A stretch of 64,000 nucleotides of DNA from Rhizaria sp. SCN 62-66 (Eukaryota). Below, in pieces: positions 1,058-39,755 of the stretch. The translations under genes were made by a program, and so were the position numbers. The notes below the pieces were generated by a model. That model worked only from the letters and a program-made list of their open reading frames with translations, made no database searches and was not told the origin of the DNA. The stretch is from assembly GCA_001724265.1 (NCBI GenBank), contig MEDY01000045.1:1-64000 (forward strand). Reading direction: 5' to 3'. Numbering within the stretch: position 1 is the first letter of the stretch; the number at the start of each line of letters is the position of its first letter.

Positions 1058-3394
1058 TTACTGCGTGAAGCTCGGCAACAGCGGTGCGGCAGGCACGAGT
1101 TGGTTTGAATCAATAGGTTTCGGCATCAGAATCGCCGCTGCAACTTCACCAGGACTGTTGCGCGCCGCATCATCAACAACGCCTTCAGCACCCACACGAA
1201 CAACGAGTTGTTCTTGCTGCGTAGGCGGTGGCATGGCGCCAAGCTGCGAGCGCGACTGCGGCATCAGTGCCGCCGGCCCAGTCTCGAGCTGCTGCGCATG
1301 CACAAGCGACGCCAGAGTCGGTGTCATGAACCCCACGCTACCCGTGCCGCTCAGAGAGCTGCTTCTACCGCTACCGGGCGCTGGGTTTATGTTCTTGACT
1401 CTAAGCCCCAGTCCAAGGCCGAGTCCAAGCGCGTGGCGGCCGCCAAAGTTGGGGTTGTGTTCGTGCTTCTGATCGATGGTGTAACCGTTGTTGATAAGCA
1501 ACGGCGACTGTTGCAACACATCGTCACTATCGATACCGCTGCTTGAGCTGTTGATCTTGTTGTTCTGGTTCGCGTTCGGATCATCGTCGAACATACCATG
1601 AGCGGACTCCGGGATCACGCGCATCTCCCTCACCTGTCTCCCGCTGTTGTCCATACTCACAGGCGCGTGCGCACTGGTGGTCGAGACAGAGCCACCACCA
1701 ACTGTGACGGAGGTGCTCGGGGCTTCACTGAGCGGACGCGGCGAGGTCACCAGTGGCGGCGAGAAGATGAGCGTGCCGACCGGGCCTGCGTCAGTCACTG
1801 TGCCCGCGGCAGCAGCAGCGGCAACGGTGACGGGCGAGTAATAGCGACGGGGACTGTGGCTGCGGCCCTGTCCTTGTGGAGCTGTGGTTGAGTGACTGTG
1901 CGCAGAGGGAGACTGACTGTGAGCAACTGGAGACGCGTGGCCGTGAGCTGACTTGCTCCCACTAGCGCTTCTAGACTGACTGTGACTGCGGATGTGGCCA
2001 TGGACCTCAGACTGGGCGTGAGCAGCAGGGTGAGTGTGGCTGTGAGGAGTGGCAACATCATCAGAAGCAGAGTGAGTGTGAACACCCTAGTTGAGGCGGG
2101 CGACTGACACTACGACCGGCAAAGGAGCAGGTGCAGGAGCCAAAACAGAGGCGAGCGCAGGCATTGCCACCGGGGCCGTGAGCATCGGAGAAGGAGCATG
2201 AGGGAGTGTTGTCATCGACGCATGAATTTGCGGCAACTGTCCAGTCCGTTGCTGTTGTTGCTGTTGATACGAGGCCAGATACGACGAGACTTGAGCTTGT
2301 GTCTGCGCAAAGCGAGCGAGAGTTGCAGAACTCAACAGGCCGCTTGCATTGGTTGCAGCATTCGATGTCGCAGGAGCAGAAGCAGCGGGCGAGGCAACAG
2401 GCGAGGCGTATTGAAAAGTTGGCTGCGAGACTTGCTGTGAAGCAGGTGTGAGAGATACAGCGCTAATCTGCTGCTGCTGCTGCTGAGGTAATGCACGTGA
2501 TTGCGCAGCGGCAGATTGTGGTGACGAGAAGTTGGGGTACGGGTAGTGCAGCTCACTGTCAACAGCAGCATTACCACTGATACTTCCTCCGCGTTGCACG
2601 TTAAGTGTCGCCTGCTGATGCTGCTGGAGTTGCAGCTGGTGCTGCTGCAGGAGCTGCTGCTGTTGTTGCTGTTGCTGCAACAGCAACTGCTGCTGTTGCA
2701 TCAAGAACTGTTGCTGCTGCTGTTGCTGCAGCTGCGACAGCGACTGTGACAGACTCGTTGTCGCCTCATCACGGTACGAGAACGCAAACGCATTGTCACC
2801 AACAGGGGGTGAGAAGAGCGTTGACGGAGACAGGAAACCGCCGGGATTAGTCGAAACACTGTGAGAAGTACTCCGAACACCTCCACTTGCACCTACAGCA
2901 TTAGGAGCAGAAGCAGCCGTGTTTGCATTGCGCACAGAAGTGCCTATAGAAAGCGCACCCATAGTGCCGGCAGTCCCCTGCAACACCGCCGCTGCGGCCG
3001 CTGCCATCGAGGCAGAGCCCACAGGCGCAGCGGCGGCAACAGCCTCAGCTGCAGCCTTGTCGGCCGCAGCAGCTGCAGCGCCTGCCTGATAGGCCAATGC
3101 ACGCTCTGCAAGGGAGCTTGCGCGAGGCCGCACGTTGGCTTGAATGTAGGTGGCGTCCGCGGTTGGGAGGCATCTTTTCTCTTGGCCTGTTAGAGGCTTG
3201 CGGGGTGAAGCTTCCGACATAGATGCAGCGGACACAACAGGAGCAGGTGCGGGAGCAGGAGCTGCGACAGTCGCAGCGGCACCACCAGCTCCCGAAGAAG
3301 CAGCAGGTGCAAACGCGTGCGATGCGACACCATGCGGCTGCGCAGTTGTGCTCAGCATCGCTCCAAGCGCCGGCGACTGCGAATTAGACTGTGC

Positions 3395-3427
<33 letters not shown>

Positions 3428-3428
3428 T

Positions 3429-3461
<33 letters not shown>

Positions 3462-6400
3462 GGTGACAGGTGTGCGCGTTGCGCTGAGGCAGCGCCCGCG
3501 GTAGCAAGCGGCCGCTGCGGCGTTGCAAACGTAGCGCCAGTGCTCGTTGCGCTCGCGTTCGGCTGACTCAACGGTGAGCGAATAGGGGGCTTCTGAGCGC
3601 TCGAACTAGCTCTCGCAACAGCAGCCGTGGCAACGGACGTGGCTGAAATCATGGGTGACGAGGCGTGACGCTGTGCCACGGGCGTGGGCCCAGTAACAGG
3701 CACAGGGGCAGCCTGAGAGGCAGAGGCCGCAGCAGGAGCTGGCGCAGGCGCAGGTGCAGGCGCCGAGGCAGAAGCTGAAGCGGAAGCAGATGCAGCGGGA
3801 GCAGGCGCGGGGCTCGGGTAAACGAGGTCCGACTCGAGCTCTTCTGACGAGCGCACAAACGAGCCGACAGCGCCAAAGTAGCCCTCGTGCTTCAGAAAGA
3901 TAGCTTCGATGGTGTTGGAAGACCAGTATGTCAGCGCATACGCAAGCATACGCATCGCGAGCAAGTTGTTCCGCAAGAAGTTTCCGACGAAGACGACTGA
4001 CGGTACGCGCAGCACTTGCCTGGCGTAGAGGTGTGCCAGCGAGCAGATGTTGTTAGTGATCATCACAAGCGCCGCCTTAGCAAGGTCTTCACGGGAGACT
4101 TGGTCGTATGTCTGCGGCTTGACAAGCTTGCCAAAAGATGCAGCAATCGTGTCACCAGAGAGACCAAGCGAGGAGTAGTCCCTGCCGTAGATGTCACTCA
4201 CGAGCAGGTCCACCTTGGAGCCCTTGCCGTGGTGCGCGAGCGCCAGCGCGGCCGAGAATGACGTGCAGCCAGTGAGCGCACGGCAGAGGCCGTAGAAAGT
4301 GCCACCTCCGAGCGAGGAACCACCGACACGAGAGTACTTCATGCCGGACTCGACCTTAAGGATGGACACACCGGTACCGATGTTGACGAGGAGGAACGGG
4401 AACGCGGGAGGATCGCGCGTGTACATCTCGAGCTCCTCATGAAACAAGTAACGCTTGAAGGAGAAACATTCGCCAGCGCAATGACGGATGAGGAAGTCAA
4501 CACCGCGAACGAGAGACTTCATCTCGTCAACGACAACAAAGCCGTATTCATCGTCTTCTTCGTCTTGCTCATCCTCCTCAGGCTCGTCGTGATCTTGCTC
4601 TCCATCAGGACCATAATATATACCAGCAGTACTCGCGCTTTCTTCCTCACCAGCATCGTAAAACTCTTGCTGGCTTTGGTCAACAGCAGAGCTACCCACC
4701 TCTGGCTGTGCCTGTGTCCGAGCTTGCGCTTGAGCGTTGGCATCAGCGCGGGCGTAGGCTGTTTGTGCGAGCGCCGTCAACCTGGCAACCTCACTACTCA
4801 TCGCTGCACTCGTCGCCGCAATCGCATCACCCACCTTCACACCACTAGCGCTAACAACACCAGTGCTGCCGTTGTACACGGACATCGCTGACTCGGCCGC
4901 GGTCTCCGCAGCTTCCGTCAAAGCCTCAGCTTCAGCCTTTGCGAGCGCGCGCCGTTCCGCCCGCGCCTTCGCGCGCGTCACACGCAGCAAGTCCCTCCGC
5001 TCGGAGCGCGCGAGCTCGATCTGACGATCAAACTCGCGTTGATACTTCACAGCACCACCACCGGTTGCGAACACCATCACAGGACACAACCCGTTTGAGT
5101 CGACAAGCTCAAAGAACTGAGAGATCCGCGCAGACTCAAACTTGAGGAAGTGGAACGTGCCGTCAAACCGGTGGGACTTGATCTCAAGCTCTTCACTGCG
5201 GCGCCCAGTCTGTCCGTACGTCATGTGCGAGAGGATAAACGCGTCGAGATTAATCTTCTTGCGCGCCTGACTCGCACACGGGTGATTAGGCGAGAAGTAG
5301 CAGATCTTCGACAGTGTGCCGCCCATATCGATGCCGACGCGGATGCTCGGCCATGCAGTCACGGGCAGCGACGTGAGCCGCGACTGCAGGTCTGAGACGA
5401 CGGTGTCGTGCGCGACGCGGAGAGCCGCCAGAACGGGCTCGTTAGAGCGGAACCGCTCGTCTTCTGAAGAGCGCGAGCCGGCGTGGCGGTGCTCGGTGGG
5501 GACGCCGGGGTGACGCAGGAACGCGGGCGGAGCAAAGCCGCGATAACCGCCAACATTACCGCTACTACTACTGCCGCTGGCAGCGCTTGCACTCGTGTTC
5601 GCGCTTGCACTCGCACTCGAGCTCGTGCTGTTGTTGGCAGCTTGACTGTTAACGTTGCTGTAGTTATTGGCGCTCGTATTGGTGTTCGTGGCATTGCTGT
5701 TATTGTAATTCTGAGCAAAGTCAGGTTGAGCTTGCGCTTGCGTTTGTGCTGCGTGGCCGTGAGTCTGACTGTAGCCGTGAGTATGACTGTGAGCAGCAAT
5801 CTGGCGACTCGCCACAGTAGCATTCGTGGACTGCTGTTGTTGTTGTTGCTGTGTGGCGACAGCAGGAGCCGAAGCAGGAGCCGCGGTCGTCGCGCCAGTC
5901 GGGTTGACAGCACTTGCGGACATTGTCGCATTGGCGGAGATCAAGACGTCCGCAGGCGTCGTCGGCGTGCGCGCTGCGACATCATAGGCAAGCATCAGCG
6001 GCGGCGGACGAGGGTGAATAGGATGCAACTCGATGTTCTCATCGGCGTTGGGGAGGGCACTACCTGCGGTGGCGCTGATACCGGAGCCCGCAGGAGCAGC
6101 AACAGAGGTACTCACGGCCGCACCAGCGTGTGCAGGCGCAATAGTGCTGCCTGTGACAGCAGGGTTTGCAAGGGTGCTCGAGTTCGCGTTCGAGGCGGTT
6201 TGGGGACTAGTTACACGGCCAACCAGCAGGTCACTCGCCGTCGTCACATATCCAGCGCCAGTGCTGCTGCTGCTGCTGCTGCTGCTATGAACGGCCGTGA
6301 CGCCAGCGCCAGTGACGCGCGCAGCGTACTCGTGCACAGTGCGCGTGTACACGGCCAGCTCGGCCAGGTAGTGCTGGTGAGCCTCGTGCTGCAGCCGCGC

Positions 6401-8923
6401 GTGCTGGACGAACGCCTCAGGGGGCTGGCCGGGGGCGGGCGGCGGCACGGGGTGGAACAGCGGCGGCGCGGGCGGCGCCAGCACCACAGCGCTGGCAGCA
6501 GAAGCGGTTGAGCCGAGGGAAGATGCCGGGGCATGGAAGGAGCTAGAGGCAGGAGCAGCTGAGGTTGCGTAGGCCGGCGCTGTTGGAGCGGGCAGCGGGG
6601 AGATGTTACTGTGACTACTCGCAACGCTTGTGTGGGACATAGCATACTGATGCTTGTTCGGAGAAATCGACGCAGTGTTGTTGTTCGCGGGCGCAAGCTG
6701 GGGGCTCGGCGCAAGACTACTCAGTTTGTTCCCGCTGCCGCGATTCGCGCTGCTTCTCTGCAGTCCGCCGCTCACACTCGCGCTTGCGGTCGTCGCAGTT
6801 GCGCTGGCGTTGTTCGGAAGTGCGTACTTCTCCTTCAGCTCAAGCTCGAGCGCTTCAGCCGCAGCGAGGGCCTCCGTGGCTGCCTCCCCCGCAGCCGCGT
6901 TGGCCGCCGCACGGGCCCGCGCGTCGGCCGGCGAGCGCAGAGCACGGGCCAGAATCATAGTGTGGCCGCTGCTGTCGGTCATATACCGCGACTGCGACTG
7001 CGCGGCCGGGATCCCGCCGACAGGCGCCGCGACAGACGCAGCACCAGCGTTCTGACTTGACGCGCTCACGACGCTGGTGTGAGGGCTGCTGGTGGCGGCC
7101 TCAGTCGCAGGGACGGGAAGCGAGACAGGGACGAACGAGGCCGAGTTCGAACCAGACATCGCAACAAGAGCGGCAGATGCAGGACTCTTGCTGCCTCTAC
7201 TGCTAATATTGCTGCTAGTAGTGGCACTAGCTTGAGCAGCTGAGAACGGAGTAGAAAAGCCAGAGTTGCTAGCAGGAGCTGCGTTGCTCCTGTTTGCAGC
7301 AGCAGCGGCAGCAGCAGCAGCGGCAGCTTCATGTTGCGCTTGGTGGCGACTTAACTTTGCAGCGAGAGACTCTGCGAAGATATCATCGCCAACACTCAGC
7401 GATGCGTCGCTGACGTTGCTATGTCCTTCGTAGTCTTCGTGGTCCTGGTTCTGGTTCTGAGCGTTGTTCACCGTCGTGACAACGTTGGTATTCGTGTGCA
7501 TATTGTTTGCTGTAGTCGCATTGAACGAAGCGTACGCTGAAGCCAACACAGGCGGTGCCAGAGGACGACCGTGAGTGGCGACGTTGTTGTTGAAAGAGAG
7601 AACCTCTGCAGTCATCGGAGCCTCCGTAAAGCCAGCGTGGCTGTGAGCTGCAACACTCGGGAGACCGTGCGCGCTAGCAGCGGCAGCAGTAGCAGCGTTG
7701 TCGTGGTGATTGTGGGCGCCACTAGCTGCTTGATGCTGCACATTATGCGCAGAATGATTGTTGGTGCTCTTGTTGTTGCTGTAGTTGATATAGTCATCGT
7801 CATCAGCGTTGGTGGACACATAGCCCCAGCCACCGCCGCCGCCGCCTTCACAGTCTTCATCATTGTCGCCATTGTTGTCGTTGCTGTAGCTACGCATGCG
7901 CTGCTGCTCAAGCTCATGATCAATGCTGCCGTCACGAGTGGTGACGTTGTTTTCGTCGCCGACACTGTGAACAGCGTGTCCGTTATTATGGGTATAGTTG
8001 TTGCCATAGATGCCGTGCGCGTTGTGAGTAGCAGGACCAACGCTGCTCCCACTACTCTGACCAGCAAGCCCGCTGCTGCCACCACCGCTCTTGCCGTACC
8101 CAGCGGCATTGACGTTGTCGGGATTGTTGCTGCTGTTGTTGCTCATCGAGAAGGCGTCACTTGCTGCAGTGTCCACTGGGCTCACCACACCGCCCATCTC
8201 AGCCTCAAGCTCCAAGCCACCGGCGTCGATGATTCTGCCAAAGCTGACCATGTTGGCGTTGTCGCTGTCACTCTGCGGCAGCGGCGTGCGCGCGAACGCC
8301 GAGGCCGGGACGCCGGACCACTCGCGCGAAGGCAGCATGCCGCTCGGCAAGCGCTCGTTGTTCACATCAACAGCAGCAACACCGGGAGCGGCAGCAAGGG
8401 ACAACACGGCAGCGGGGACAGGAGGAGCGACCGCTGGGACGTTGGTCGCTGCGTTCGTGCCAGCAGGGGCGGAGTGCTGTTGTTGTTGCTGGAGAAGAGC
8501 AACGCGTGCGCGCGGGAACGGTGCCGCGGGAACCGTAAAGTCGGTGCGGGCAGCAGCCGCAGCAGTGTTGAGCTGTGAGGTAGAAGCCGGCTGTGTGCTG
8601 CTCGCGTTGGCGGCCGCTGCGGTGACAGCAGCAGCGGCGGCAGCAACGGGGATAGTGGGTGGAGTCGGTGAGACGAGAGGGAAGTTGGGGAACGACGGCG
8701 TGGGAATTAGCGTCGGATCGGAGTCTAAAAAGGACGCCGCTGACGCAAAGTTAGGCCCAGAGTGCTGGGACGGGTAGCGGAGTGCACCGGAGGGAGAGCG
8801 GACTTGCGGTGGCTGAAGAGGCGGAGTTGCAGTTGTGAGGGGCGGCTGAGGCGCGCGCAGGTCGCTAGCGGCCGGGGGGAAAGCGCGCTCGTCGCCGCGC
8901 AACCCATAGTAGGGGGTACTCAT
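1058..8923 (-). CDS. PANK: Type II (eukaryotic, Fumble-domain) pantothenate kinase with very long low-complexity extensions; ~2621 aa if TAG 2087-2089 is read as sense
   Basis: Motifs GIDMGGTLSKICYF, ATGGGAVKY, VDEMKSLVRG, PFLLVNIGTGVSILKV, GGSSLGGGTFYGL, DLLVSDIYG, ASFGK, FLKHEGYFGAVG. First ATG at 8923 (MSTPYYG). The frame continues past TAG 2087-2089 for 96 stop-free codons into ORF 1058..1798 and ends TAA. Confidence 0.9.
2087..2089 (-). other. In-frame TAG codon, apparently sense (PANK: ...VARLN*GVHTHSASDD...)
   Basis: Joins ORF 2087..8941 and ORF 1058..1798 in the same frame; no AT-rich intron-like sequence around it. Confidence 0.8.
3395..3460 (-). repeat. (CAG/CAA)n coding microsatellite, poly-Gln of about 22 residues inside PANK
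   Basis: Run of ttgctg units on the + strand. Confidence 0.9.
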
Positions 8924-10193
8924 AGCGGTACGCCGGGGCAAGACGGCAAGATTCGCTTAAAAAGATAAAAACTGGGAGAACGGGGTCAGTTTTCGGCTGA
9001 GAGGTCGCAGAGAAAGCCGAGTGCAAAGTCGGAAATGAGTAGGGTGCGATAACAGGGAAAAGAAAGAGATTGAGGGGAATAAAAAAATAGAAAATTGACC
9101 ACTGAGTATGCGGCCATTAAGAATTCAGCTAAACATCAGCAGAACAATGTTTACACGACGAACATAAGAAATGCCCGATTAGCCTTGTGGTGCGACTCGG
9201 CCATCCGACGTCGACCACAATCGATTCAGTGTGCTCGTGGCCCTCGGCACGTCTCCTTTTTCCGCACGCAAAACATGTGATTTGTTGATTTACTCTTAAT
9301 ATTACTCTACAATTTTACGATATTTGCAGGATTTCATGCAAGACTGTATAATTTTAAGTTGACTTCTTTGAAAACGTTTAATATCACCTTGTATACGATC
9401 AATTGTCACGCGGACTTTCTTCTACCTTCCTTCTTTGTTTCTACGATGTGTCAGTACCTGGGTTGTTATACACGTTTTAGGTCTAAATATTGTATCATAC
9501 GCAAGTATCGTTTATTACATGTGCGGGCGCGTTAACATTCTGCGACATATCTGTAATGAAGTCATGATTATGCACTTGAGAAGGCTATTTCGTCAAACCA
9601 TGTCGTATCGCTGACCTTCTAACTTTGCTGCCTCATTAGAGCCTGCCTCCTACATTCCAGAGACTTAGATAATACAAACAGCAGTAACACGGGCATATAA
9701 TGACGGTTTCAAATATACGAAATAATTTATCGTGATGCACAGTGTTTGACTTTGATATTTTTGTCTCAATGTTACAGTATAACTTGAAGAGAAGTTTCAC
9801 AAATGTCTCGCTTGATAAGGTGTAGACAGATACATGATTTCATAAAGCAAAATAGAGAGCATTTCAAAAAGCTGTCAATATGCGGTATACAACGCTCAAG
9901 TCTGCGCTATGCGTGTTGTTGGTTGCTCACAGTCGTGAACTGACAAGCGTACGAAAAATGCGATTGTGGTGGCGGCGGGGAATGGAGCCTGCTGCGTTTT
10001 TACAAAACCAGGATATCCACTTGAACACATTTAGAAATCACTTGATACATTAAGATCTACAAACAAAATGATTGATAAATACGAGGTTTTAATTATTTTC
10101 TTTGCTAACGGTGTTTTTATTGCTGCCTGTGCTTCACTTTTCACTTCGCTCCCGCAGAAAGAGTATCTCAATTGAGATCTTGCTTTCCCCCAC

Positions 10194-13100
10194 ATGTCTT
10201 CTTCCAGGAAGCGATCTAACCATCATCCGGGCCCGGCTGCAGCTCTTCAACCACCGCGTATTGCTTCCCCCGTTGCCGGCACGAGCGAGCTTGAGCCTTC
10301 TCGGCTGGAGACCGAGTTACCCGCCTCCCCCCACCCCACTCCCGCCGTCATCGCAAGGGCTGCACCGCAAGGTGCTTACCGCAACAAGACCGCTATGCCG
10401 CCACACCCTGCCTTGAAAGGCGCCGTCTCTGATGCCCGCACATCTGCCCCCAATACATCTGGCGGCTTGAGTGCGGTCTCAGAGCGCGCCGACGGCGAGG
10501 GCAGTGACAAGGACGTCTCTGGCGCTGCTGATGACGACGAGAAGGAGCATCTGCCCGCGAGCCCCCACCCCCGCGTCCACGCCGCTCCCCACGCCATTAA
10601 CACCGTCGATAGCAGCGCAACCGCGCACGGCAGTGACAGCGGCAGCGGGGGCAAGTACGAGCCGGGCGCCGGTCTGCGGTACCCGGCGCCGCACTCGCCG
10701 CAGCAGCAGCCGCGCACGCCCCGCGAGCAGCTGCCCTCGGCGCAGGACGCGGCCCACAGCCAGCTCGGCCTCGCGGGCGGCGTCGGTGCGGGCACTAAGG
10801 CGCCTAAGCACGTGCCGCTGCCACCCTCGGCGGCGGGCGCTGCTCACGGTCACTTCGACGGAAAGAAAACCGCCTTTAACCCCAGCACGAGCGCTGGCGC
10901 TAACTACAACGCCGGCATCGCTCATATCGCTGCTAACAAGAGCGGCATTGGCAGCGTGAGCGGGTACGACAAGGCTGTTGCGCACTTGCCCCAGACTCCT
11001 GAGACGCCCGTGATCACGCCGTTTACCGAAGGCGAGCTCTCGAACAACAACAACAACAATAATACCAGTGGCAGCGAAAACAAGGCCGCTCTTATCGGCG
11101 CTCGTCATAGCCTCAGCGCTGGCTCTGATAAGGCCCAGGCTCAGACGCAGGAGCAGGGACACAATCGCGGCAGCGACACCCGCTTCGACAGCAGTCCGAT
11201 CAAGCCTGCGCCCCCGCCCTACTCGCTCAGCGACGACTCTAGCACTCGCGCAAGCAAGAGCGCCAGCACAGGCAACGCGCCGAGCACGCATACTGGCAAT
11301 GACAGTGCTGTTGATAAGGTCACAACGCAGCTCAACAGCATCAAAAACGATGTTTTGCGCCGTGTCAACGAGCTGGACAACACTCTGCGTTCGTTCAACA
11401 TCAACAGCACAAATGCTGCTAACCCCCAACAGCCGCAGCAGCAACAACAGCCGCTGCAGCAACAACAGCCGCCGCAGCAACAACAGCCGCCGCAGCAGCA
11501 GCCGCCGCAGCAGCAGTATGGCACCGGTGGTATTCTCTCGACCCTGGGCTCCATCGCTGCAGGCACACTGGCGAGTTCTTTTGCGGCCGGCGCGCAGCAG
11601 CAGCAGCAGCGCTTTGACCAGCAGGGCGACCAGTCTGGCCAGCAGCAACAGCCGCAGCAGCAGGGCCAGTACAGCGGCGCGGCGGTGTCCGCCCTGACGG
11701 CCATGGCCGAGGCCACCGCCCGGCAGCACATCTCCAACGCGCGCTCTACGGTTGAGCAGTCACTGCGGAAGTTAAGCCGCGCCGTGCTCGCACAGACCGA
11801 CAAGCTCGAGGACTACACGCGCGCCGCCGAGTCGCGCGCCGCCACCGCGGTCGGCGGCGTCATTGGCGGCCTGACTTCCGCGGCCGCGAGCCAGGGCGCG
11901 GCGGCCGCGGGCGCGGTCCGCAGCGCGGCCGGCACGCTTTCGCGCTACGCCGAGGCCGCCAACACGGCCATCAGCAGCGGCGGCGGCCAGATCGGCGGGG
12001 GCGGCGTGGGCGGTGGCATTGCGGGCGCTGCAATGCGCGCGCTGCTGCCCGAGGCGGCGTCAAACGCGGCCTCCGCGGCGGTGCAGGGCGCCGACGCCGC
12101 CGTGGGCCGCGTGACTCGCGCGATGGGCGAGGTCGCCGCCGCGGTGGGCGCTGCCAAGGAGCGCGTTGAGGCTGTCCGCGGCGCGCTGCGGCAGGGCGTA
12201 AGGGATACGCGCGACGGCAGCCCGCTCCCCGTAGCCCGCGGCAACGTTGGCATTGACGCCAGCATGAACGCGGGCGCTCACGCGCCCGCAGCGAACATGA
12301 GTGACCCGCACGATATCAGCGCGAACGATAGTAACATTGAGCAGGCGGATCGTGACGGTGGGGGCAACAACTACCGTAGCGCTGTCCAGGAGAGTCCCCC
12401 TGGTGGCTACAGCGATTTCGCTCGTCACGCGCCTCGTCATGACTCAAACCAGGACTACGGTGCAATTGCACCCAGTGGCAGCAGCGCAGTGCCGATGTCG
12501 CAGTTGCCGCAGTCTACGTACCGGTATGACAGTGACCCTGACTCGATCCGCGACGCGCAGTCACACATTCTGCGCGCGGACGATGACAACGTCCGCGCGG
12601 ACATCAACAACAGCTACAGTAGCGGGGGTGCTCATCGTCACCAACAGCAGCAATACGGCCAGCAGCAGCAATACGGCCAGCAGCAGCAATACGGCCAGCA
12701 GCAGCAACAGCAACAGCAGCCGGATCAAGGCGAGCAACGCACCGCGCGTCATTTGATGTCATCGCTGTCTCAGCAGCAGCAACAGCAGCAGAGCGGCGGC
12801 GGTGGTCTGCTCGCGTCACTTGCCTCAGGGCTCACATCGTTCCTGACCGGCACTAACGCAAACACGCAGCAGCAACATCCCCAGCAGCAGCAGCAACAGC
12901 AGCAGTACGACGCCAATTATGAGCACCGCTACGGCAGCCGCAGCAGCGACCCAAACACCGTCAGCGGCAGCGTCGAGAGCCTAGGGGCCGCCGCGTCCAG
13001 TCTGTGGGGCTCGCTGCGCAACGCTCGCGACTCGATTCTGGGCATCGGCGAGCACGCATACAGCGGTGACCTAGCCGCGGCCGCGAACATGACGCCCGAG

Positions 13101-19100: not shown

Positions 19101-20738
19101 AGCACGCCGGCCGACCAGTCTAAGGGCTTTAGCCCGTCGATGGCCCCGGCTAAGGGCCCAGGGGCGAAGCACCCGGGTCCGGACTCGCGCATCATGGAGA
19201 GCGAGTTCTCCGGCCAGCGCGCCGCCGACGTCACCGCTGCCCCGCGCCGCAGCGACTTCAGTGTTAGCGGTATCGCGGACCCCATGAGTCGCGGTGTGAC
19301 GAAGCCTGGTGCGAGTGCGCAGGCAAAGGGCGAGGCCGAGTATCACAACTTGATATCACAGACGCAGGCGCAGCGTGATCCGGCCGCCCAGTAGCACCAG
19401 CAGCTGCAGCAGCAGCAAGGCAGCCAGAGCAAGGCCCCGGGGCAGAAGCAAGTAGAGTCCATGGTCGAGCGCGCCGACCAGAGCGACAGCAAGAACGAGA
19501 GCGAGGGTGAGAGCGAGAAGGAGGGCGTGAAGCGGTTCAAGACCAAGGACTCACCCGACACTGGCCGCGCGCGCCCCAATCCCTCCGGCGTGAACGCGAA
19601 TATCAACGCCAGCAGCGCTAAGAGCAACACTACTAGCACTGCGCCTCCGTTGGTGTTGCCCCCGCCTGCATTCAGCAACAACAACAACATCACTGGCGCC
19701 GGCCCTATCGTTAGCAACATCAAGCCTGGCGCAAGCACCACTCAGAGCCGCCGCGCTGCGGTCAGTGCGACTGCTGCCACCAAGGGCGTCGGCAGTGACG
19801 CTAGCAGCAGCAGTGACAGCAAGGACGAGGACGCGGACGAGGGCTTGGAGGGACCCGGCCTGAATCTAAGTACCCACCCCAACCACGGCCAGCCGACCGC
19901 CTTCATGCGCGGCCACTCCTCCGCCAACACTGGCCCTGGCGCGAGCCGTAACGGCAGTGCGCCTGCAGGTGGCGCCGCTGGCACCGGTGTCGACCCCCGC
20001 GCCGGCAGTGACGTCGTGCGCTTCACCGCGCAGCAGCACCCGCGCTCAATCGACCGGCTCCAAGCACATCAACAGCAGCGACGCCAGCAACAGCAGCCGC
20101 AGCAACAAGATCACGAGCAGCCGCAGCCGCAGCCGCCTCAGCAGCAGCAGTCTACTCAACCACAATCACAGGCACAGGCGCAGGCCCACGCGCAGCCGCA
20201 GCCGCAGGCGCAGGCTCACGCGCAGACTCTGACTCCCGCCACGCTCAGCGCGGCGCCCGGCGGCGCTGCGAGTGCTCACGGCGCTGCCGCCGCCGCCGAC
20301 AGGCCGGGCCACCACGCGGTGCAGCTGGGCCGGTTTGACCTGGCCGAGGGCATGGGGCCGCAGCCGCGCGCGTCGGTCGCCGCGCAGCTGCAGCACCAGC
20401 GCGAGCAGCAGCTCGGCGAGCAGCAGCAGCAACAGGCTCCTGCTCAGGTTCAGGCACAGCAGCAGCACTTTGGCGCTGGCGCTCCAGCACGTGGCCACGA
20501 CCGCAGTCACATGGCTGACCAAGAAGAAGAGGAGGAAGAGGAGGACGGGCGCAGGGACGACCGCGCTGACGCTCACTCGACAGACACCAAGACCCACACC
20601 AATGCTAAGAAGATCATCAATGGCAAGGTTCCCAGTAGTGCTGCAACAGGCACTGGCATCACGGAGGCCTCTGGCAAGGACGTCAGCGGAGGGGGACACG
20701 TTAGGCCCGGACACTTAGCAGGTACGCGCCGACCTTAA
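10194..20738 (+). CDS. Giant single-exon low-complexity (Gln/Ala/Ser/Pro-rich) hypothetical protein, ~3514 aa, with one internal TAG
   Basis: ORF 10194..19394 ends at TAG. 22 open codons (HQQLQQQQGSQSKAPGQKQVES) lead in frame into ORF 19461..20738, which ends TAA followed by AT-rich DNA. No domain recognised. Confidence 0.75.
12642..12695 (+). repeat. 18-bp tandem repeat x3 encoding QQQQYG
   Basis: ca(a/g)cagcagcaatacggc repeated three times. Confidence 0.85.
15530..15680 (+). repeat. Degenerate 12-bp coding repeat (SQPQ/SQPP units)
   Basis: Repeated tctcagccccag / tctcagcccccg units. Confidence 0.75.
19392..19394 (+). other. In-frame TAG codon, apparently sense, in a Gln-rich context (GCC CAG TAG CAC CAG CAG CTG CAG CAG)
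   Basis: Flanked by CAG codons; the frame stays open for a further 1344 nt. Confidence 0.85.
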
Positions 20739-21592
20739 CTTAATGTTAAGCTGCAGCCTAGTATAATGTAATGTTTTGTATGTTTAGTGGTGTATGCGTT
20801 GTTTCGAATCACGTAAAAAAGTAACATTGCGTTCGTGGCACAAGTTTCACGCACGCAGCAAACCTATAGCTGTGTATTTCAAGTCTTGTTCAACTGTAAT
20901 CCAGTAGATAGCTTCAACAGTGAAAGTTGCGCAGGGAAGACGTAACTAACACGTTGTAGGCTTGTAATACGAGCTAAACAATGTGAATGTTTAACAAATT
21001 TATAGAATTTAAACGACAACTTTTTAGTTGAACGTGTTTTCTAAATCAACGACGAAAAACACTGTTGTGATCCCGCATTGTAATTTGTGCTTTATTTGTA
21101 CTGTTACTGCTATTGTGATAACAAAAGCGAAATGGAAAGCAAATCACAAAACAACTTGCATACTCACGCACACACAGGTGTTATTTCGATTGATTCAAAT
21201 TGAAGAAGCATTTTATTAATACAAATGCTTTTAAGAAAAACGAGATATCTCTTGTGTGTGTCACTGAGTGCGTGTTAGTTTGTGCTTGTTACTCTAGCTT
21301 GCACTTGTTACTCACTCGGGCATAGCAGCATCAAAACGCACTGATAGTTACAGAGACTGCTTGTTGTGTTTGCTAACGTCTTCAAAATCAAATGTGTTTT
21401 TATAATCTTTGCGTGCCTTGAGTAGAATCAGACGCAACTACGTGTCAAGCTGTGCCTGTTCGCATTGTCATCCAGACCGAAGACCAGTCGGAGCTGTCCT
21501 CTGTATCAACAGCAACACCCGCGAGCTATCAGACTGAAAACTCGGCACTTGCAAGTGCAACCCCTGGTGATACTAATCTTGCAGGTTTAAGC

Positions 21593-24040
21593 ATGCGTTT
21601 CACAACATCAGCACGACAGCGCAGTGCACTGCAGAAGCCATCCCGTCTCTCGGCGCCCAACACAAATCACACCGTCAATAGTAACACAAATACAGATACT
21701 GCTGCTGCAAGCAAAGAGAAGCTGGCCCGCGCTAGTCTCTGGCAGTCGCCGCGTTTTATCACAACCGCGACAACCGCAGCCAGAGCAACCGGCCCCGCGG
21801 CGATGCTCGCCGCAGCCACTACAAATGCGACTCCAGCAGCGGCAGCAGCCGCGTTAGCAGGGGGTCATCTGAGTGTAACAGCACCAAAGCCTACTGCAAC
21901 TGTGGTTGCTTCCCCGTTAGCCGGAGTGACGCTGCCTCCTCCTCCGTGCCCTCCTGTTGTGACCAAGGCCGGTGCTACGAAGTTGAAAAGAACGAATGAC
22001 ACAACATCAGAGAAAGCATCGACAGGAGCAGCACGCGCAGTTAGTGCAGCTTCAGTGACTGCTGCAGATGCTAAAGCAGCAGTAAACAATGAATCATTGT
22101 CGTATGTTGCGGCGACAGCAACAGCAATTCCGGCGTTAACTGAGCTGCCGAGTGTAAGTGTCGATGAGACTACGTTCTTTAGCGTCGACGACAACAACCT
22201 CACAAGCAGCGAGGCGGTGAGCAGCGGAAATGATAGTAACGAGCTTGTGTTCCTGACTTCTGAGCGCGGCGTTGCATTCAATCTGCTCAGCGTCACGACC
22301 ACCAACGGCGACAGCGGCGTCGACAGCGCCGAGAGTTGTGACAGCAGCAGTGTCAGCGCTGTCAGGGTGTTAACGCGCGAGCTAGGTCCTTACACTCTCC
22401 GGAGCCCGACTCCAGGTAGCTTTGCGCGCGCTCACTCTCGTGGCCACTCCGCTCACGGGCACGATCATGGTCTTGCCCATCGTCACTTCAACAACAGCGG
22501 ATTCTCAGCTGTAACAAAGACCGAAAGTGCAAACGTACTTGATGGTGCTAGCGGCAGTAGCGAAGCCGTTCAAAGCACGGACCGCGAGATCAGCGGCAAC
22601 AACAGCAGCAATAGCAACATCAAAATTACGATTAGCATTAGTAATGTTCGTGCCAACGGCAACGACCATGGCGACATCAATGCGCTCGGCCACAGCCGCA
22701 GCGACCCCCACTCGTACACAGGCCGCTGCACAACAACGTCGCAGCGGCAGCAGCAACAGCAATTGCACTAGCAACAGCCGGGACAGTGTGTCGGACTACG
22801 GCATGGACGCTTCCGCTCGCAGTGCCTTCAAGTGCAACATTTGCCTCCGCACGTACATCACCATCACCGTTGTCATAATCGCCAAACCATCCAATCTCCT
22901 TCTCAGCATCAGCCTAATCAGCAAGAGCTCCGTCGTAACCAAGATCGCGAGCAAGAGCAAGCAATCACAGACGAACAGCAACTCGAGCACGAGTTAGAGC
23001 GGGCGCTAGACCAAGAGCTTGACCAGGAGCTCAGCTTCAACTTAGAAAAGGGCCTTGTGCTAGAGCAGGGCCAGGGTCTGCGGCTAATGTTAGGCCAACA
23101 GCGACAACAGCGACAACAAGAAGACCAGACGCAGAGGCAGCTGCAGCAGCAGGGCCAGCGGCACCAGAGGCCGCACCCGAGCGCAACCGCGGGAGTGAGC
23201 AACATCTGTCGTGCACTCGGCTGTGAAGGCGACTGCTTTATGTTTGATTATCCCACAACAACATCGACGACAACAACTGCGACGTTGACAGGAAACAGCA
23301 GCAGCACAAGCAGCCTCGGCGGCAGTCCTGCTTACAGTCCTCCTTACGAGCACACGGTCGCTCACGGCCATCATCTTGCCCACGGCCACGCCCACGAGCA
23401 CGTTCACGGCCACGGCCACGGCCCTTATTACATTCACACTCGCAATCTCGGCCACGGTCGCGGTCATGATGTTGCTGCGGTCGCTGCTCAGAGTCGCAGC
23501 CCTTACAGTGACACGCACGACAACGATGACGATGACGACATTGAAGTCGAGAACGCACAGAGGACAAATCGTCAACAGGTGGCTGATACCAACGCCAAGA
23601 ACAGCAGTATTAATCTCGAGAATGTTGACGCCAGTGGCGATGGTACTGCGCAGCGCCGCGGATCAGCTGGACGTCAACACAGCCAAAGCCAAAGCCACTT
23701 GTACTATCACAACGACAATGACAGAAATAATTACCACACAAACGCAGACACTGAGAGCAAGCCCGATGCCCTAAGTCACAGTGCTACCAACGCAAACAAA
23801 AGCATGAACACAACCTCTGACACTGAGGGTAACAATTGTAACGGCTCCCGAGGCGATCGCGTGACTCAGACTCAGGCCAAGACCCCGCCTCAGCACAGCC
23901 AGAGCTTCAGCTTCGGTGCAAAACGGTGTCATCACAGTGCTAGTGAGCACTGCGGCTGCAGCACTAGCGGCAGTGGCAGCAACAGTAGCGGGAGCAACGA
24001 CGAGGATAACGACGGCCACGGCAATGAAGACCATTCATGA
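21593..24040 (+). CDS. Low-complexity hypothetical protein (Ala/Thr/Ser, Gln and His tracts), ~815 aa, with one internal TAG
   Basis: First in-frame ATG at 21593. ORF 21452..22771 ends QRQQQQQLH-TAG, then 20 open codons join ORF 22832..24040 in frame; ends TGA. Confidence 0.65.
22769..22771 (+). other. In-frame TAG codon, apparently sense, in a Gln-rich context (QQQQQLH*QQPGQ)
   Basis: CAA TTG CAC TAG CAA CAG; the frame stays open to 24040. Confidence 0.8.
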
Positions 24041-24596
24041 GCGAAGCAGTGCGGCCGGACAAATGTAACACACAGATCTGTGATGATAGCTCGAGAGGTG
24101 AAATCAAGCTCAAACCATAGTTTGTGGCAGCTTAGACATCGATATAAGTGAGACGTAGAGTGGTATCAGTGAACATCTATTGCGATATGAGTCAGGGTCT
24201 CCTTGCTGCGACATGCCTTTGTGGCGGGAGCCGGGGGGTGCAGTGATGCGCGACGATTACGAAATGATGGTAAAAGCAAGGTGAGAAATAATAAGCTCAA
24301 CAATCCGACAATAAAACAAGCATTAATGAAGAATATCGTATTTTTAGTTGCGAACTCAAAGATTAGCAAGTGGTAGAGGCAATTTGGCATATTGCTGAGT
24401 GACTTGTGGCTGGATCGCAAACGGCTCGTTGGGTAACGGACTGAGCTTGAACAAATAGACCCTGTCAGGCCATACAGATCACATATTCACGGCTTCTTAA
24501 AACAAGTTCTTATATAATGTATTCTAAATTGTTTGTGATTTCAATATCTTGCTTACTGACGGATTCCCCTGCTCGCCTGTTCCATTTTAGCTCGCG

Positions 24597-27006
24597 ATGG
24601 ACGGCCTCGGTGCCTTCTCGTCAGGCACCTACGGAACGGCCAAGCCCGACGGCCAGGACCCGTCCCGTACTGCCACGAACCCGGGTGTTTCCTTCAACGA
24701 CGGGTTTTCCGCTACCAGCGGTCACGAGGCCGCTGACCTTATCGATATGGAGTCTATTGAGGGCCGCGGAGACCAGCCCCAGCAGCTGGCCGACCTCGTG
24801 TTCGAAGCCATTTGCAAAGACATCGAGGAGAAGCCCACTTCTAAGGGCAATCAGGCTTTCCGCGACAAGGTCTTTGAGAACTGCTCCCCGCAAGAAATCT
24901 CTCTTCGCAACGTTCGGTACGTCTTTGACTTCGCTTCCACAGCGCCGCCACACTTTGCCATCTTCACTCTCACTGCACTCATTCATCCTCCTTTTCTCCT
25001 CTGTTGTTGTTTACCGTCATGCTCTTAGCATGGGTCCTAACGGCGCCGCTGCGCTGACCAAGGCCATGCTGCCCCTGCCCGTCCGCAAGCTGGACCTGAG
25101 CCTTAACTCTCTCGGCGACGAGAGCGCAGTCGCACTCACCCGCGCCGTGCTCTCGATCCCGACGCTCAAGCACCTGTATCTCGCCTCCAACGGCATCGGC
25201 CTCACGGGCGTCATGGAGCTCTCCAAGTGCCTCCCGAACTTGCTCACACTCGACCTCTCCAGCTCGCCGCAGCACCCCTGGGGCAACCGCGTCGACGGCG
25301 CCACGTGCGCGGCACTCTCACGCGCGCTCTGTCGGCCCACTTCACTGACTTCACTCGACCTCTCGGGCAACCCGCTGGGCGCGGGCACCAGCGGCTCCAA
25401 GGCTACCGAGCTGCTTGCCGTCATGCTTACCAAGTACAACCGTACGCTTGACTCGCTCAACCTCTCGCGCACGGAACTGGGCACGCGCGGCGGCGCCACC
25501 ATCCTGGCCGCGCTGGCGCACAACCGCTCCGTGCGCCACCTCGCCCTGGCCGGCAACGGCATCGGGCCCGACATCGGCAAGGCCATCGAGGTTGTGTTCC
25601 GCGTCAATCACGTGCTGTGCGGGCTGAATCTCGCGCACAACCCGCTCGGCGGCGCCGTCGCGCGCTTCTCCGACGCGCTGTCTGCGAACCCCTCTATCGT
25701 CGTACTCGATCTGGAGGACGTCGCCGCCGGGGACGAGGGAGCGAGCGAGATCGCGCACGTGCTGGTTGCCAACCGGTCCATCACGGTGCTCTCGCTCGCC
25801 AATAATAACATCACAGAACGGTACGGACAATAACAAACAGTCATGATATTGACCAACTGCATGTATTATGAAGTAGAATGACATTGAACAATTACGCTAT
25901 CAATATTTCGTACTTATTCGCCTTTTTTTTGTTTTATTTTTGTTTTTGTCTTGCACAGCGGTGGCCAGATCATCGCGCAAGCGCTGTATCACAACCCTGT
26001 GCTCACGTCCCTGGACCTCTCCGGCAACCCGATCAAGGACGCGGCGGCGATCGAGATCGCCAAGGTGCTGGCCACCTCGACCACGCTCATCTCGCTCGAC
26101 CTGTCCTCGTGCAAGATCAGCGACGAGAGCGCGTGCCACATCTTCTCCGCGCTAGCCTCGAACCCGCACACGGCGCTGCGCAAGCTGCGGCTGCACAACA
26201 ACTTCATCTCGGGCGCCTCGGGCGACGCCATCCTCGACGCGCTGTACCGCAACCGCTCGCTGGTGACGGTGGACCTCAGCGGCAACCAGCTCGACCACGT
26301 GCGGCTCTCGAAGCTCAAGGCGCTGGGGCAGCGCAACCTGACGGCGATCCGCGAGGCCGAGCCGCGGCGCCTGCGGGGCGCGATCCAGCGCCTGCGCGGG
26401 CAGCAGCTCAAGCTGCGCAAGGCTGAGGCGCTGCTGCAGACGTACCGCGCGACGATCGCCGACACGCAGGGCAAGATCGACGAAGTGGAGCAGGAGAAGG
26501 CGCGCTTCCTCAAGAACCAGCTCGAGTGGCGCGCAGAGATCCGGAGCCAGATCCAGAAGGAGCAGGACGCGATCGCCGAGGCGAACAAAAAGCTGAGCGA
26601 GAAGCAGCACGAGCTGGCAACGGTGGAGAAGCAGTACGGCGACCGGCTGGCCGAGATGCAGCTCGCGCTCGACGGCGAGACCGAGACGCGCAAGGGCATC
26701 GAGCGCGACCTGGCCAGCGTGCGCAAGGAGCTCGAGGAGGCGATCCGGCAGCGGCCGAACAAGGTCGAGGACCTCAAGAAGCAGATCGACGCCGTCAAGG
26801 GCGAGAAGGCCGCGTTCAACAAGCAGCTGGTGCACGTGCGCAAGGAGCTGACGAAGCTGAAGCAGGCCTACGAGGAAGGCAAGCCGGTGAGCTACTTGGT
26901 GGAGCAGGCCAAGGGGCTGCTGCTGCACAATGCGGTCATCGAGGACGCGCAGAAGCGGGCGCAGAGTGCCGTGCAGGCGCCTAAGGACGATCTTGACGAG
27001 CTGTGA
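24597..27006 (+). CDS. RNI-like leucine-rich-repeat protein with C-terminal coiled coil (~719 aa, 3 exons)
   Basis: Exons 24597-24916, 25029-25820, 25959-27006; introns GTACGT..TAG and GTACGG..CAG keep the frame. Repeats such as LDLSLNSLG, LYLASNGIG, LDLSGNPLG, LSLANNNIT, LDLSGNPIK; E/K/Q-rich tail; ends TGA. Confidence 0.85.
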
Positions 27007-27364
27007 ACTGATCAGCCTTGATGATGATTTCACTCAGGCCAACCATGTCACGGTCAACGCGCAAAGAAGGGCCAAGTACAACGTGCACTTGTAGCGTCCA
27101 AGACCGGACGTTTTAGCACGATTTGAGTGTGCATATGTCCATGCAACACATGCTTATGTAGAATTAATACAATTGTGATCACAGCAAAAGTACATCACCA
27201 AGCCACGCAGCTATGGTACAATTGAAATTGACATTTTTGAACGTTAAAATCGCAAATTTTATGAAATTCTATTCAGAGTCATATCATGGTGTGATTGTGT
27301 TAGAATGTTTACCATGAGTCGTCACGCCTTGATTATGTCGAAAGCTGTCACATGCCAAGTCAAA

Positions 27365-29884
27365 TCAAAATTCACGACAATCAATATAGTATTGACAAAA
27401 AATTGACAGCGTTCCCGTTTGGGCACCAACGCTGCAGCTTTCCGCCTGACAGCGCGTCTCAAAGTACTGCAACACGGTGGCCTCAAAGGGTGCATCCTCA
27501 TAGTCCTGCAATGCAGCAGTCGTCCCTTCCACGCACGACATGACGCGGCCCACGGGCACTGCTCCACGCAACAGTCTTACGGGACAGGGCTTAAACACAA
27601 TAAACCAAGGCGTATCGGCCTGTCCTGCCGGGGTAACGGCGCGGGCATACATCAGCACTGTGCCGGCGGGGTACATCTCGGTCTTTTCAGGGGCAGTGCT
27701 CGCAGTCAGTGCTGGGTACTCACCAAAAACAATATCACTCTCGGGAAGCGATAAAGATACAGTGGCACAGGGAACCATGTCATTACACACGTACTGCGTG
27801 ACGAACGGCAGCGGCGACGCACGAGGTTGATCGGGAGGCACGAAACATGTGTGGACCCGGCTGCCCAAAGCGTTCCCATAGATCATCGTGCGGAAATAAG
27901 CGGCATTGCAAGGAAACCTATCATCATTAAAGCGAAGGACCAAGCTGAACGTCGTCTTCAGCTCCATATCGGCGTCGAAAAGCCTTGCCGTCAGCACCAT
28001 ATCTGACATCATGAGTTGAGCCTTGAGTTTCCCCCTTGCATAAACAAGAATGCGCTCGCGTGCCCTTGCTTGCAAGAGAGTCAGCGCCGCTGGAGACGGC
28101 ACACCGTTGACCCGAACGGAGGCAGGAAGTACCTCGAATGTCTAAGTGCCAAAGTGGAACGCAACCCGCCGTGGGTAGCCACACTCTACGAGGCAACACT
28201 CAATATGCTTGTCAAACACAGTTTGCCAGTCATTTTGCGACTGAACAAACTCGCGCGTCTCCACGACAGCTTGTAATCGCAACTTCTCTGTTGAGTCTGT
28301 ATCAGGCACAATCAAACCCATGCTGACAAGGAGAGTGCTTAGCTTCTTAAGCTCATGCAGCACCGGGTTGCGGTCATCAGCCTGCACACAGTCATCATAG
28401 CGTAGTAGCTCGAACGTTTGTAGCCCGCGGCATTCGATCAACTTGGCCACAAAGGGGTTCCGCGGCGTTTCACCGTTGCGGTCGGGTCCGACAGAGTCAG
28501 GCAGGGTGTCGCTGGTTGTAATCATCGTGCAAAGAAAATGCAATAGTTTAACGAGGGTATGTGGACTCAGACGCGGATTATAAGGCGTTCGTGCCTGATC
28601 ATGGTGCGACACAAGGAAATGTTTAAGGAATGTGCAGCAAGTATCGACAGCACCACAAGCAAGGAGCTGTTCCGCCGTGCTAACGCGCGTCACGTCAGAT
28701 GCTGAGCTTAATACTCTGTTAAATATCATGAGAGTATTGGTTGGCAGCGTGTGATAGCCAGTTAAACAATCGCCGCGAAAAAAGTCGACAATCGTGCTTA
28801 AGATGCGTGAGAATCCGGGTGAGCAAGAGAGCCGTTGAGAAAACTCAGGAAAATGAGTTGCCAATAAGGCGAGGAGGCACATGAACAAGTCTAAGGTCTC
28901 CATATTCCGAATTTCGTTTGAGTCAATGTACTGGAGAATACGACCAAGGCGATCAGCAGTAAACGCACATGTGAACGTGACATCATCAAAAAGGTAGACA
29001 AACGAAAGTAGTGACTACAGAGTCGTGAAATCTGATAGTTGCAACAACGGCTCAAAATGGTCGCTGATCGTGAATTCCGCAAGATCGCGGCGACGCTGCG
29101 CATCATCCGTCTCATTACCGCCTTCGGCACTGCCATCGCTGGCACTGGCGGTATCGCACTGAAACAAACTGTGCAGTGTAGAGTAGAGTGCAACGCGGAC
29201 GTATTTCCTGACCCCGAAAGACGGAAACCATCGCCGGACAATGCGAATCAGCATGGGAACAAAGCCAGAGACCGCGGAGTAAGGAAGCTGGGGCACAGCG
29301 ACTGACTCTATGGTGGTGCCAGAACGAAGTGCGATCAAAGCGTTGCCGAGATTGCGGTAGAAGTTAACATCATCAAAGACAACCCACGATGGGTTTTCGC
29401 GTCGTCGTTGTTCTACCTTGTACATAAATGACAGCACGTGATTCAGTGCAGCGTGCCTGACAGGTGAATCGACACTCGACTTGCGAGCAACAGTTGTCAC
29501 AATCTTCAAAATTGTGATCACCATATCTGCTTGCGGAAGATGAGACAGAGCAGCAGTAAGTGTCTCAACTGCGCCACACTTAGCGAGTACGTCACTACCG
29601 CCTGTAGACGAAGACACATCTTCAAACAAGTCGATAATAGCCTTAAGACGCTCAGCATCAATGTCGCCGGAAAGCACCAGCGACTGCAGAAGCAGCGTCA
29701 CGACCTCACTTTCGCCGAGGAGACCTACGTTTGGATGCGAACAAAAAGCGTGTTTAAGATCGGATATGGAGCTGGAATTTGCCGTCAGAGATACCACGCG
29801 ACTCACAGCGGCATATGTTTGAGTCTGCGCACGAGCGTCGAAAAGTTGCTGCCGACGCTCCAGTGCAGTGAGACGCTGTGCCAT
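27365..29884 (-). CDS. ~839 aa protein: helical (ARM/HEAT-like) region plus C-terminal degenerate cyclophilin-like domain; two internal TAG codons
   Basis: ORFs 29015..29884, 28142..28903 and 27365..28102 share one frame, separated only by TAG (29015-17, 28142-44) and stop-free linkers of 37 and 13 codons; ends TGA. C-terminus aligns by eye to cyclophilin motifs (LVLRFNDDRFPCNAAYFRTMIYG, IVFGE, AGTVLMY, WFIVFK, VPVGRV, YIDCREF). Confidence 0.7.
28142..28144 (-). other. In-frame TAG codon, apparently sense (FHFGT*TFEVLPASVRVNG)
   Basis: Joins two long ORFs in frame. Confidence 0.8.
29015..29017 (-). other. In-frame TAG codon, apparently sense (SDFTTL*SLLSFVYLFDD)
   Basis: Joins two long ORFs in frame. 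Confidence 0.8.

Positions 29885-39721: not shown

Positions 39722-39755
<34 letters not shown>

Follow-up and report, generated by a model that had tools for sequence, protein, structure and literature searches.

Does UAG still end translation in the organism that contributed contig MEDY01000045.1 (assembly GCA_001724265.1, Rhizaria sp. SCN 62-66)? The question is raised by positions 1 to 64,000 of the forward strand of this contig, a stretch of 64 kb referred to here as the window, in which five TAG triplets lie inside four genes (genes 1 to 4). A first-pass annotation of this DNA had proposed that UAG is read as a sense codon while UAA and UGA remain stops. The computational follow-up upholds that proposal on three grounds: full-length homologues of gene 4 run through both of its TAGs in gap-free alignment, stops inside the aligned regions of this gene and its relatives occur in a TAG:TAA:TGA ratio of 24:1:0, and TAG is found at 0 of 15 gene ends. 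On this evidence, all of it from sequence, UAG is very probably an ordinary, rarely used sense codon of the nuclear code, with UAA and UGA ending genes.

Five TAG codons and fifteen gene ends

All five TAGs are present at the positions and on the strands originally given for them, and each joins two long stop-to-stop open reading frames (ORFs) that share one frame. Gene 1 (1058..8923, minus strand; 2,632 aa) encodes a pantothenate kinase (Fumble, PF03630, E 3.3e-98) and ends in TAA; its TAG, at 2087..2089, separates the stop-to-stop ORFs 1058-2086 and 2087-8956, and is codon 2290 of the frame, with 342 more codons before TAA 1058. The Fumble domain occupies residues ~1474-1701 of this protein, and the remainder is Ala/Gln/Ser/Asn-rich and of low complexity. 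Gene 2 (10194..20738, plus strand), a low-complexity protein of ~3,515 aa that ends in TAA, carries its TAG at 19392..19394 within the Gln-rich run AAQ-TAG-HQQLQQQQ, between ORFs 10176-19394 and 19395-20738, and 447 more codons lead to TAA 20738. In gene 3 (21593..24040, plus strand; a low-complexity protein ending in TGA) the TAG at 22769..22771 again lies in a Gln-rich run, QQQQQLH-TAG-QQPGQ, between ORFs 21422-22771 and 22772-24040, with 422 more codons to TGA 24040. Gene 4 (27365..29884, minus strand; 839 aa, ending in TGA) belongs to an uncharacterised family and contains two TAGs, at 29015..29017 (residue 290) and at 28142..28144 (residue 581), which link three ORFs (27365-28141, 28142-29014 and 29015-29893). 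A Pfam search of genes 2, 3 and 4 returned no family.

The sequence that follows each TAG has the character of a continued reading frame. Past every one of the five, one frame alone is open while the five remaining frames carry 3-30 stops, and when the downstream segments were shuffled, 0/2000 versions lacked an in-frame stop in each of the five cases. Because the first ATG lies 22-144 codons past the TAG, the ORFs beyond it do not represent genes of their own. The linker lengths reported at first (96, 22, 20, 13 and 37 codons) were less accurate: the first ATG after TAGs 2087, 19392, 22769, 28142 and 29015 is found at 144, 22, 105, 43 and 37 codons, respectively, so that only the values 22 and 37 agree. 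The codons that directly follow these TAGs, in the same order, are GGT, CAC, CAA, ACA and TCA, as had been reported. Nor is there an intron signature at any of the five, again in line with the earlier description, local guanine plus cytosine (GC) content being 0.37-0.68 (compared with 0.31-0.41 in introns of this organism) and no usable donor being present. Around TAG 2087, where GC is 0.53-0.67, the sole donor-like motif would yield a 22-nt, frame-breaking intron.

In-frame TAG accounts for 5 of the 15,285 codons of the window (~0.03%). The observation that all five interrupting codons are TAG holds as a count but is weak when taken alone, since random single-base nonsense changes at this codon usage produce TAG in 68-73% of cases and the chance of five out of five is 0.14-0.21.

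The gene ends bear on the same question from the other side. All 15 that had been listed were verified, with TAA at eight (1058, 20738, 35454, 40067, 50699, 55023, 55989 and 62644), TGA at seven (24040, 27006, 27365, 34615, 40500, 41847 and 58833), and TAG at none. That TAA is a true stop was borne out by two conserved proteins. Rab7 (54403..55023, plus strand; Pfam Ras, E 1.1e-54; PDB Rab7, E 4.5e-73) ends in CSC-TAA, and its residues 4-206 align with residues 3-207 of a solved Rab7 (1vg0_B), which is an end-to-end alignment. Cluap1 (IFT38; 38508..40067, plus strand; PF10234, E 1.4e-85) ends in DDDF-TAA; its Pfam domain begins right behind the ATG (codon 94), and TAG 38388 lies upstream of the start. 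Both this triplet and TAG 37680 are located 5' of start codons. The further claim that no internal TAA or TGA exists is correct once introns are modelled, with 0 such codons among 15,285, whereas the raw frames hold TAA 25831, TGA 32871 and TGA 46601, all of which fall in the introns described below.

The gene 4 family across strains and relatives

Gene 4 allowed the two TAGs it contains to be placed against homologous proteins. With TAG entered as X in the query, an exhaustive HMMER search recovered 107 homologues at E <=0.001, 57 of them at <=1e-30; a word-based homologue search with gene 4 gave no match. Four near-full-length homologues (739-854 aa) span both TAGs and are 41-44% identical to gene 4 by phmmer and 38-43% in alignment A1. 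When 19 homologues were aligned with gene 4 (20 sequences), each TAG took up exactly one column with ungapped flanks. Past TAG 28142 comes the best-conserved part of the family, an intact domain that contains DTPWFIVFKPCP..LLRGAVPVGRV, and beyond the two TAGs every near-invariant family residue is kept with no frameshift. In the protein database, the gene 4 of the window is stored as three proteins cut at the TAGs (P0001, P0002 and P0007), with 100% identity in each case. Nine of the aligned homologues were looked up, and every one is a metagenome protein.

Members of this family are ~800 aa long, with a helical N-terminal part and a conserved C-terminal domain that carries the motifs RFPCNAAHFR and LLRGAVPVGRV. 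A comparison of the family profile with solved structures gave nothing below E 0.1.

A metagenome scan with a smaller alignment (A2) identified 31 loci (L001-L031), all in a single metagenome other than the source of the window; the same scan with the single gene 4 protein found no relative. The loci represent 31 distinct family members, with GC 0.44-0.62. For these, a hidden Markov model (HMM) built from database proteins was compared with the three forward-frame translations of the match strand, every stop being masked. Inside the aligned regions of the 31 loci and the window, the in-frame stops comprised 24 TAG (two of them from the window), one TAA and no TGA. For random nonsense changes at the codon usage of the window, the probability of at least 24 TAGs among 25 is ~1e-3, and the 24:1:0 ratio is spread over at least 18 separate genes. 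The first stop past the match was TGA at 18 loci, TAA at 8 and TAG at 3, and 2 matches ran to the contig end. At all three loci where this first stop was TAG, conserved coding sequence continues beyond it: in L007 the TAG is followed by the FRPV tail of the family, in L019 by a ubiquitin domain, and the TAG of L031 is itself within a ubiquitin domain, aligned with ubiquitin Ala28, a position where the closest paralogue has Gln.

The ubiquitin domain in these two loci (L019:2-958 and L031:1-810) is fused behind the C-terminal domain of the family. In L031 a Peptidase_S74 (endosialidase chaperone) domain comes next (E 9.3e-09), which is an unusual arrangement.

Independent sequence data were available for parts of the window. 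Words sampled from it were recovered at shares of 0.76-1.00 in four runs (X1-X4) from three studies, labelled as bioreactor or wastewater metagenome, one of which may be the window's own source; runs X5-X12 held few of the sampled words and were excluded from habitat naming. In run X3, from another study, TAG 22769 occurs within an identical piece of 3,155 nt (record 11, 22463-25617, 0 differences). Run X4, also from another study, contains a second strain, ~0.6-1% diverged, that was compared over window positions 19000-38999. This strain retains TAG 29015 (record 22, with 13 differences, none in this codon). At 19392 it has CAG in every covering contig, one of them long, with CAG-repeat noise from other organisms a possibility. 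TAGs 22769 and 29015 thus recur in independent data; TAG 28142 lies outside the listed X4 pieces.

Insertions and deletions (indels) between X4 and the window were unevenly placed. All ten fell in the non-coding 31% of the covered sequence (intergenic DNA, untranslated regions and an intron), one of them, of 2 nt at 25867, in the intron of a leucine-rich repeat (LRR) gene, and none was seen in the 3,648 nt past the TAGs, for which P = 0.0012 were those segments non-coding. Within these aligned pieces, the indel pattern shows frame-preserving constraint past the TAGs.

Residue and mechanism, and the alternatives

Family alignments were used to ask which amino acid UAG would specify. HMM emission scores over 23 sites ranked Glu above Lys and Lys above Gln. 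A likelihood test on a fixed tree, following the approach of Pánek et al. 2017, placed Glu best at 18 sites, followed by Ala (-2.6 log-likelihood units), Ser (-7.2), Gln (-10.5) and Leu (-26), and Glu was again best at 22 sites (Ala -4.3, Lys -5.5, Gln -8.7). Controls in which known residues were masked recovered the truth for Gln in 11/12, for Glu in 12/12 and for Lys in 9/12 cases. Random entropy-matched sites gave Ala as best in 19/25 trials and Glu in 0/25; because such sites never give Glu, the TAG sites are not random positions and lean to Glu. The window itself offers a hint of Gln, two of its five TAGs lying inside poly-Gln runs, one of which is CAG in the X4 strain. We estimate that Glu is the leading candidate, though somewhat short of an even chance, that Gln is rather unlikely but next in order, and that Ala on the one hand and all other residues on the other are each about half as likely as Gln is. 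A fuller proposal, in which UAG specifies Glu (or Ala), UAA and UGA are the sole terminators, and the organism is a deep uncultured lineage, met repeatedly in wastewater-type communities, at an early stage of reassignment, is put forward tentatively, as one that may well prove wrong.

If UAG is a sense codon, it would be decoded by a tRNA with anticodon CUA, unable to pair with UAA, and the eRF1 of this organism would be without UAG recognition. Both proposals are modelled on the established UAG-only codes (PMC5304391). In the eRF1 of Iotanema, Gly stands in place of the Thr of the GTS motif (PMC9161772).

Several results weigh against reading UAG as an ordinary sense codon, or against naming its residue. 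Scans for tRNA genes came back empty for both the 64-kb window and the 31 loci, eRF1 is not encoded within the 64-kb window, and RNA runs X7 and X12 held no piece unambiguously bridging a TAG site, with no spliced joint listed. The sample of this genome is 64 kb only, and given the rarity of TAG together with its 68-73% share of random nonsense changes, the window alone is compatible with five nonsense alleles. The CAG of X4 at 19392 could just as well be an intact allele, with TAG as the nonsense variant of a polymorphism, and gene 4 differs between the window and X4 at 4 synonymous and 9 non-synonymous positions, which gives no clear purifying signal. Among the relatives, L004 has the single in-frame TAA (codon 153 of frame 0, HVHGKM-TAA-ARGVFDD), which may be an error, the mark of a pseudogene or a case of UAA being read through on rare occasions. 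In L028 (25-363, GC 0.44) three TAGs occur within 22 codons at conserved Lys, Leu and Lys/Arg positions, and no single residue suits all three; this locus could be a pseudogene, or else belong to a relative that uses TAG more heavily or in another way. As to the residue, bootstrap support amounts to just 57-61% for Glu, 23-33% for Ala and 1-2% for Gln, with Lys reaching 15% once L027 and L028 are included. The best residue per site is also mixed, being Glu at 5, Ala at 4 and Gln at 3 of the 18 family sites, with Ser, Thr, Asp and Arg each best at single sites, and with two TAGs in one column that favours Tyr/His.

Some of these points would be met by an inefficient or unassigned terminator: UAG would then have no dedicated tRNA, would be passed by near-cognate read-through with a variable residue, and might still end some genes elsewhere, leaving the code ambiguous. 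The extreme rarity of in-frame TAG (5/15,285 codons), the heterogeneity of the aligned residues, among which there is no clear winner, and the lack of a tRNA in the window or the 31 loci all agree with this, and the sample (15 gene ends and 31 loci) is small. Against it, no credible TAG end was found among the 15 window genes or the 31 loci; in gene 4 a TAG stands ahead of the most conserved domain, so that efficient decoding would be needed. No context favouring read-through was found, and the TAG sites differ from random positions in a way that suggests a preferred residue. We consider this explanation improbable. Programmed stop-codon read-through (e.g. at UAG-CARYYA), where translation likewise passes UAG but normal UAG terminators coexist, was rejected, as the 27 TAG sites share no motif and normal UAG terminators are absent from the sample. 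The first-pass annotation had also argued that no read-through motif is present, and this extends to the larger set: at the 27 sites the +4 base is C in 8, G in 8, T in 7 and A in 4, and 20 different codons come next.

The TAGs could also have arisen as nonsense alleles of genes that are decaying or dispensable (pseudogenes or strain polymorphisms), biased towards TAG by the dominance of G-ending codons. In favour of this are the 68-73% TAG share among random nonsense changes, the CAG of the sister strain X4 at 19392 and the degraded look of L026 and L028; moreover, low complexity marks the products of three of the four affected genes, and the ratio of non-synonymous to synonymous change in gene 4 is not low. 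Against it stand the near-invariant residues of gene 4 that stay intact past two TAGs with no frameshift, and the lack of indels in 3,648 nt past TAGs against 10 in non-coding DNA. The 24:1:0 ratio over at least 18 genes (P ~1e-3) also speaks against it, as do a TAG common to two diverged strains (29015) and one common to two studies (22769), and gene ends free of TAG would be left unexplained. Nonsense alleles therein are a very improbable account of the five TAGs. Least probable of all, with only a sliver of likelihood, is a standard code in which the TAGs are removed from or changed in mRNA, by in-frame mini-introns or by U-to-C editing. Short introns are spliced in this genome, several of them ending in TAG, and no RNA contig lies unambiguously over a TAG site, both of which would leave room for it. 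Yet the residues beside both gene 4 TAGs align without gaps, which means that nothing is spliced out there, and the flanks are GC-rich without donor sites. Editing would be required at 27 unrelated contexts, and we know of no precedent for TAG-specific editing of nuclear mRNA at many unrelated contexts. The shortage of TAG terminators, too, would remain unexplained by changes to mRNA.

Known UAG-only codes and the source organism

UAA and UAG are nearly always reassigned jointly, and because the two change together so regularly, UAG-only cases serve as natural experiments on their uncoupling. The non-standard nuclear code described here is judged to be real and adds another case to the rare UAG-only codes, bringing to them a non-ciliate, GC-rich, metagenome-only lineage. 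Fewer than ten UAG-only lineages are named in PMC5304391 and PMC11687900. The precedents listed by the first-pass annotation (Iotanema, a sainouroid rhizarian and some ciliates) stand, but the list was incomplete, and Protocruzia, Scotinosphaera and phyllopharyngean ciliates can be added (PMC11687900). In the literature, searched at the level of abstracts and listings with subscription-only papers and supplements outside, we found neither a GC-rich non-ciliate wastewater organism with this code nor a case of UAG = Glu or Ala in which UAA is a stop. The origin of this UAG reassignment may well be independent, and if the residue proves to be Glu or Ala, the code table would be one not yet recorded.

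One close parallel is Iotanema spirale (Fornicata), where UAG = Gln and UAA and UGA are stops (PMC5304391). Here as there, UAG alone is reassigned, as a minority codon, in a flagellate, and UAG ends no genes (0/119 complete transcripts in Iotanema, PMC5304391; 0/15 gene ends here). In Iotanema, UAG makes up ~8% of Gln codons (204 in 126 genes), whereas in the window, if it is Gln, the share is 0.5% (5 versus 945), and stops divide as 104 UAA to 15 UGA in that species compared with 8 to 7 here. Unlike the situation in Iotanema, family data from relatives put Gln 9-10 log-likelihood units below Glu. The proteins of the window are also not long-branch, as Rab7 (E 4.5e-73) and a DEAH helicase sharing 52-54% identity with named proteins from fungi, Heterolobosea and other eukaryotes attest.

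UAG = Leu with UAA as a stop is described for the sainouroid rhizarian exLh (Sainouroidea; PMC5304391), and for a lineage of phyllopharyngean ciliates, a group that has changed UAG to Leu once and to Gln twice (PMC11687900). Both Leu cases resemble the present one in that UAG alone has changed, UAA and UGA still being stops, in uncultured organisms known from sequence data alone. Leu is, by contrast, 26 log-likelihood units below the best residue here, and UAG is frequent in exLh (384 in 71 genes; PMC5304391) and rare in the window. Hartmannula, Trochilia and Protocruzia read UAG as Gln and the green alga Scotinosphaera reads it as Ser (PMC11687900); these too are independent UAG-only changes with UAA as a stop. 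Unlike in Scotinosphaera, Ser is 7-10 log-likelihood units below Glu in our data, and no green algae occur among the best named Cluap1 and helicase matches listed. UAG = Glu is found together with UAA = Lys in the oligohymenophorean ciliate PL0344 (PMC11687900), and UAR = Glu in peritrichs and Blastocrithidia (PMC11687900; PMC12153298). If UAG is Glu here, these three would be the only precedents for that assignment in the cited sources; all of them reassign UAA too, whereas UAA ends 8/15 genes of the window, including Rab7.

That UAG has gone from gene ends yet is very rare in frame fits the early phase of codon-capture models. Pooled over the window, GC at third codon positions (GC3) is 0.76; genes 1, 3 and 4 are below this, at 0.52-0.62, and gene 2 is at 0.76. 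TAG may thus be found chiefly in genes of low expression or weak bias. Standard gene callers split genes at UAG, with the consequence that the proteins of this clade are fragmented in public catalogues.

The source is an uncultured, GC-rich, flagellum-bearing eukaryote that was assembled from metagenomes. The window is gene-dense eukaryotic nuclear DNA throughout, with GC of 0.48-0.70 in 4-kb steps and ~0.6 overall. Its Pfam content includes the pantothenate kinase (Fumble), Cluap1/IFT38, a flagellar transport protein, the Ras-family GTPase Rab7 and the DEAH helicase, together with LRR, F-box and C2 + histidine-phosphatase proteins. The best named matches of Cluap1 are from animals, including a sponge and a cnidarian, and a choanoflagellate (40-44% identity), and those of the DEAH helicase are from fungi, Naegleria and animals (52-54% identity); over both proteins, identity to the closest named relatives is only 42-54%. 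An atlas search returned nothing beyond generic Cluap1 clusters.

Introns of this organism are 132-187 nt long and AT-rich (the four that were measured have GC 0.31-0.41), with a pyrimidine tract, 5' ends that read GTACGT, GTACGG, GTGCGT or GTCAGT, and 3' ends in YAG. Such introns and a GC of ~0.6 are not ciliate-like. In the LRR gene (24517-27006), two ORFs form one gene, with LRR domains on either side of a 138-nt intron (25821..25958, plus strand; GTACGG...pyrimidine tract...CAG) that holds in-frame TAA 25831 and a stop at 25885; the downstream ORF has no ATG ahead of its LRR domain. The DEAH helicase has two introns on the plus strand. The first (32852..32983; GTACGT...TAG, GC 0.31) contains in-frame TGA 32871 and is followed in phase by the HA2 exon, and the second (33141..33292; GTACGT...CAG, GC 0.37) contains TAG 33206 and is followed in frame by the OB_NTP_bind exon. 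ORFs 45038 and 46638 likewise make up one gene, which ends at TAA 50699; its two exons, both in phase 0, flank a 187-nt intron (46520..46706, plus strand; GTGCGT...pyrimidine tract...TAG, GC 0.36) with TAG 46565, 46583 and 46704 and TGA 46601. On the minus strand, the gene at 58833-60692 has a 153-nt intron (60126..60278; GTCAGT...TCTTTAG, GC 0.41) with TAG 60240 and 60126, and this stretch, when translated, does not look like coding sequence. Six further in-frame TAGs of the window (33206, 46565, 46583, 46704, 60126 and 60240) are therefore all intronic. Two of the five introns have a length that is a multiple of three and contain in-frame stops, and so look like read-through in a naive ORF scan.

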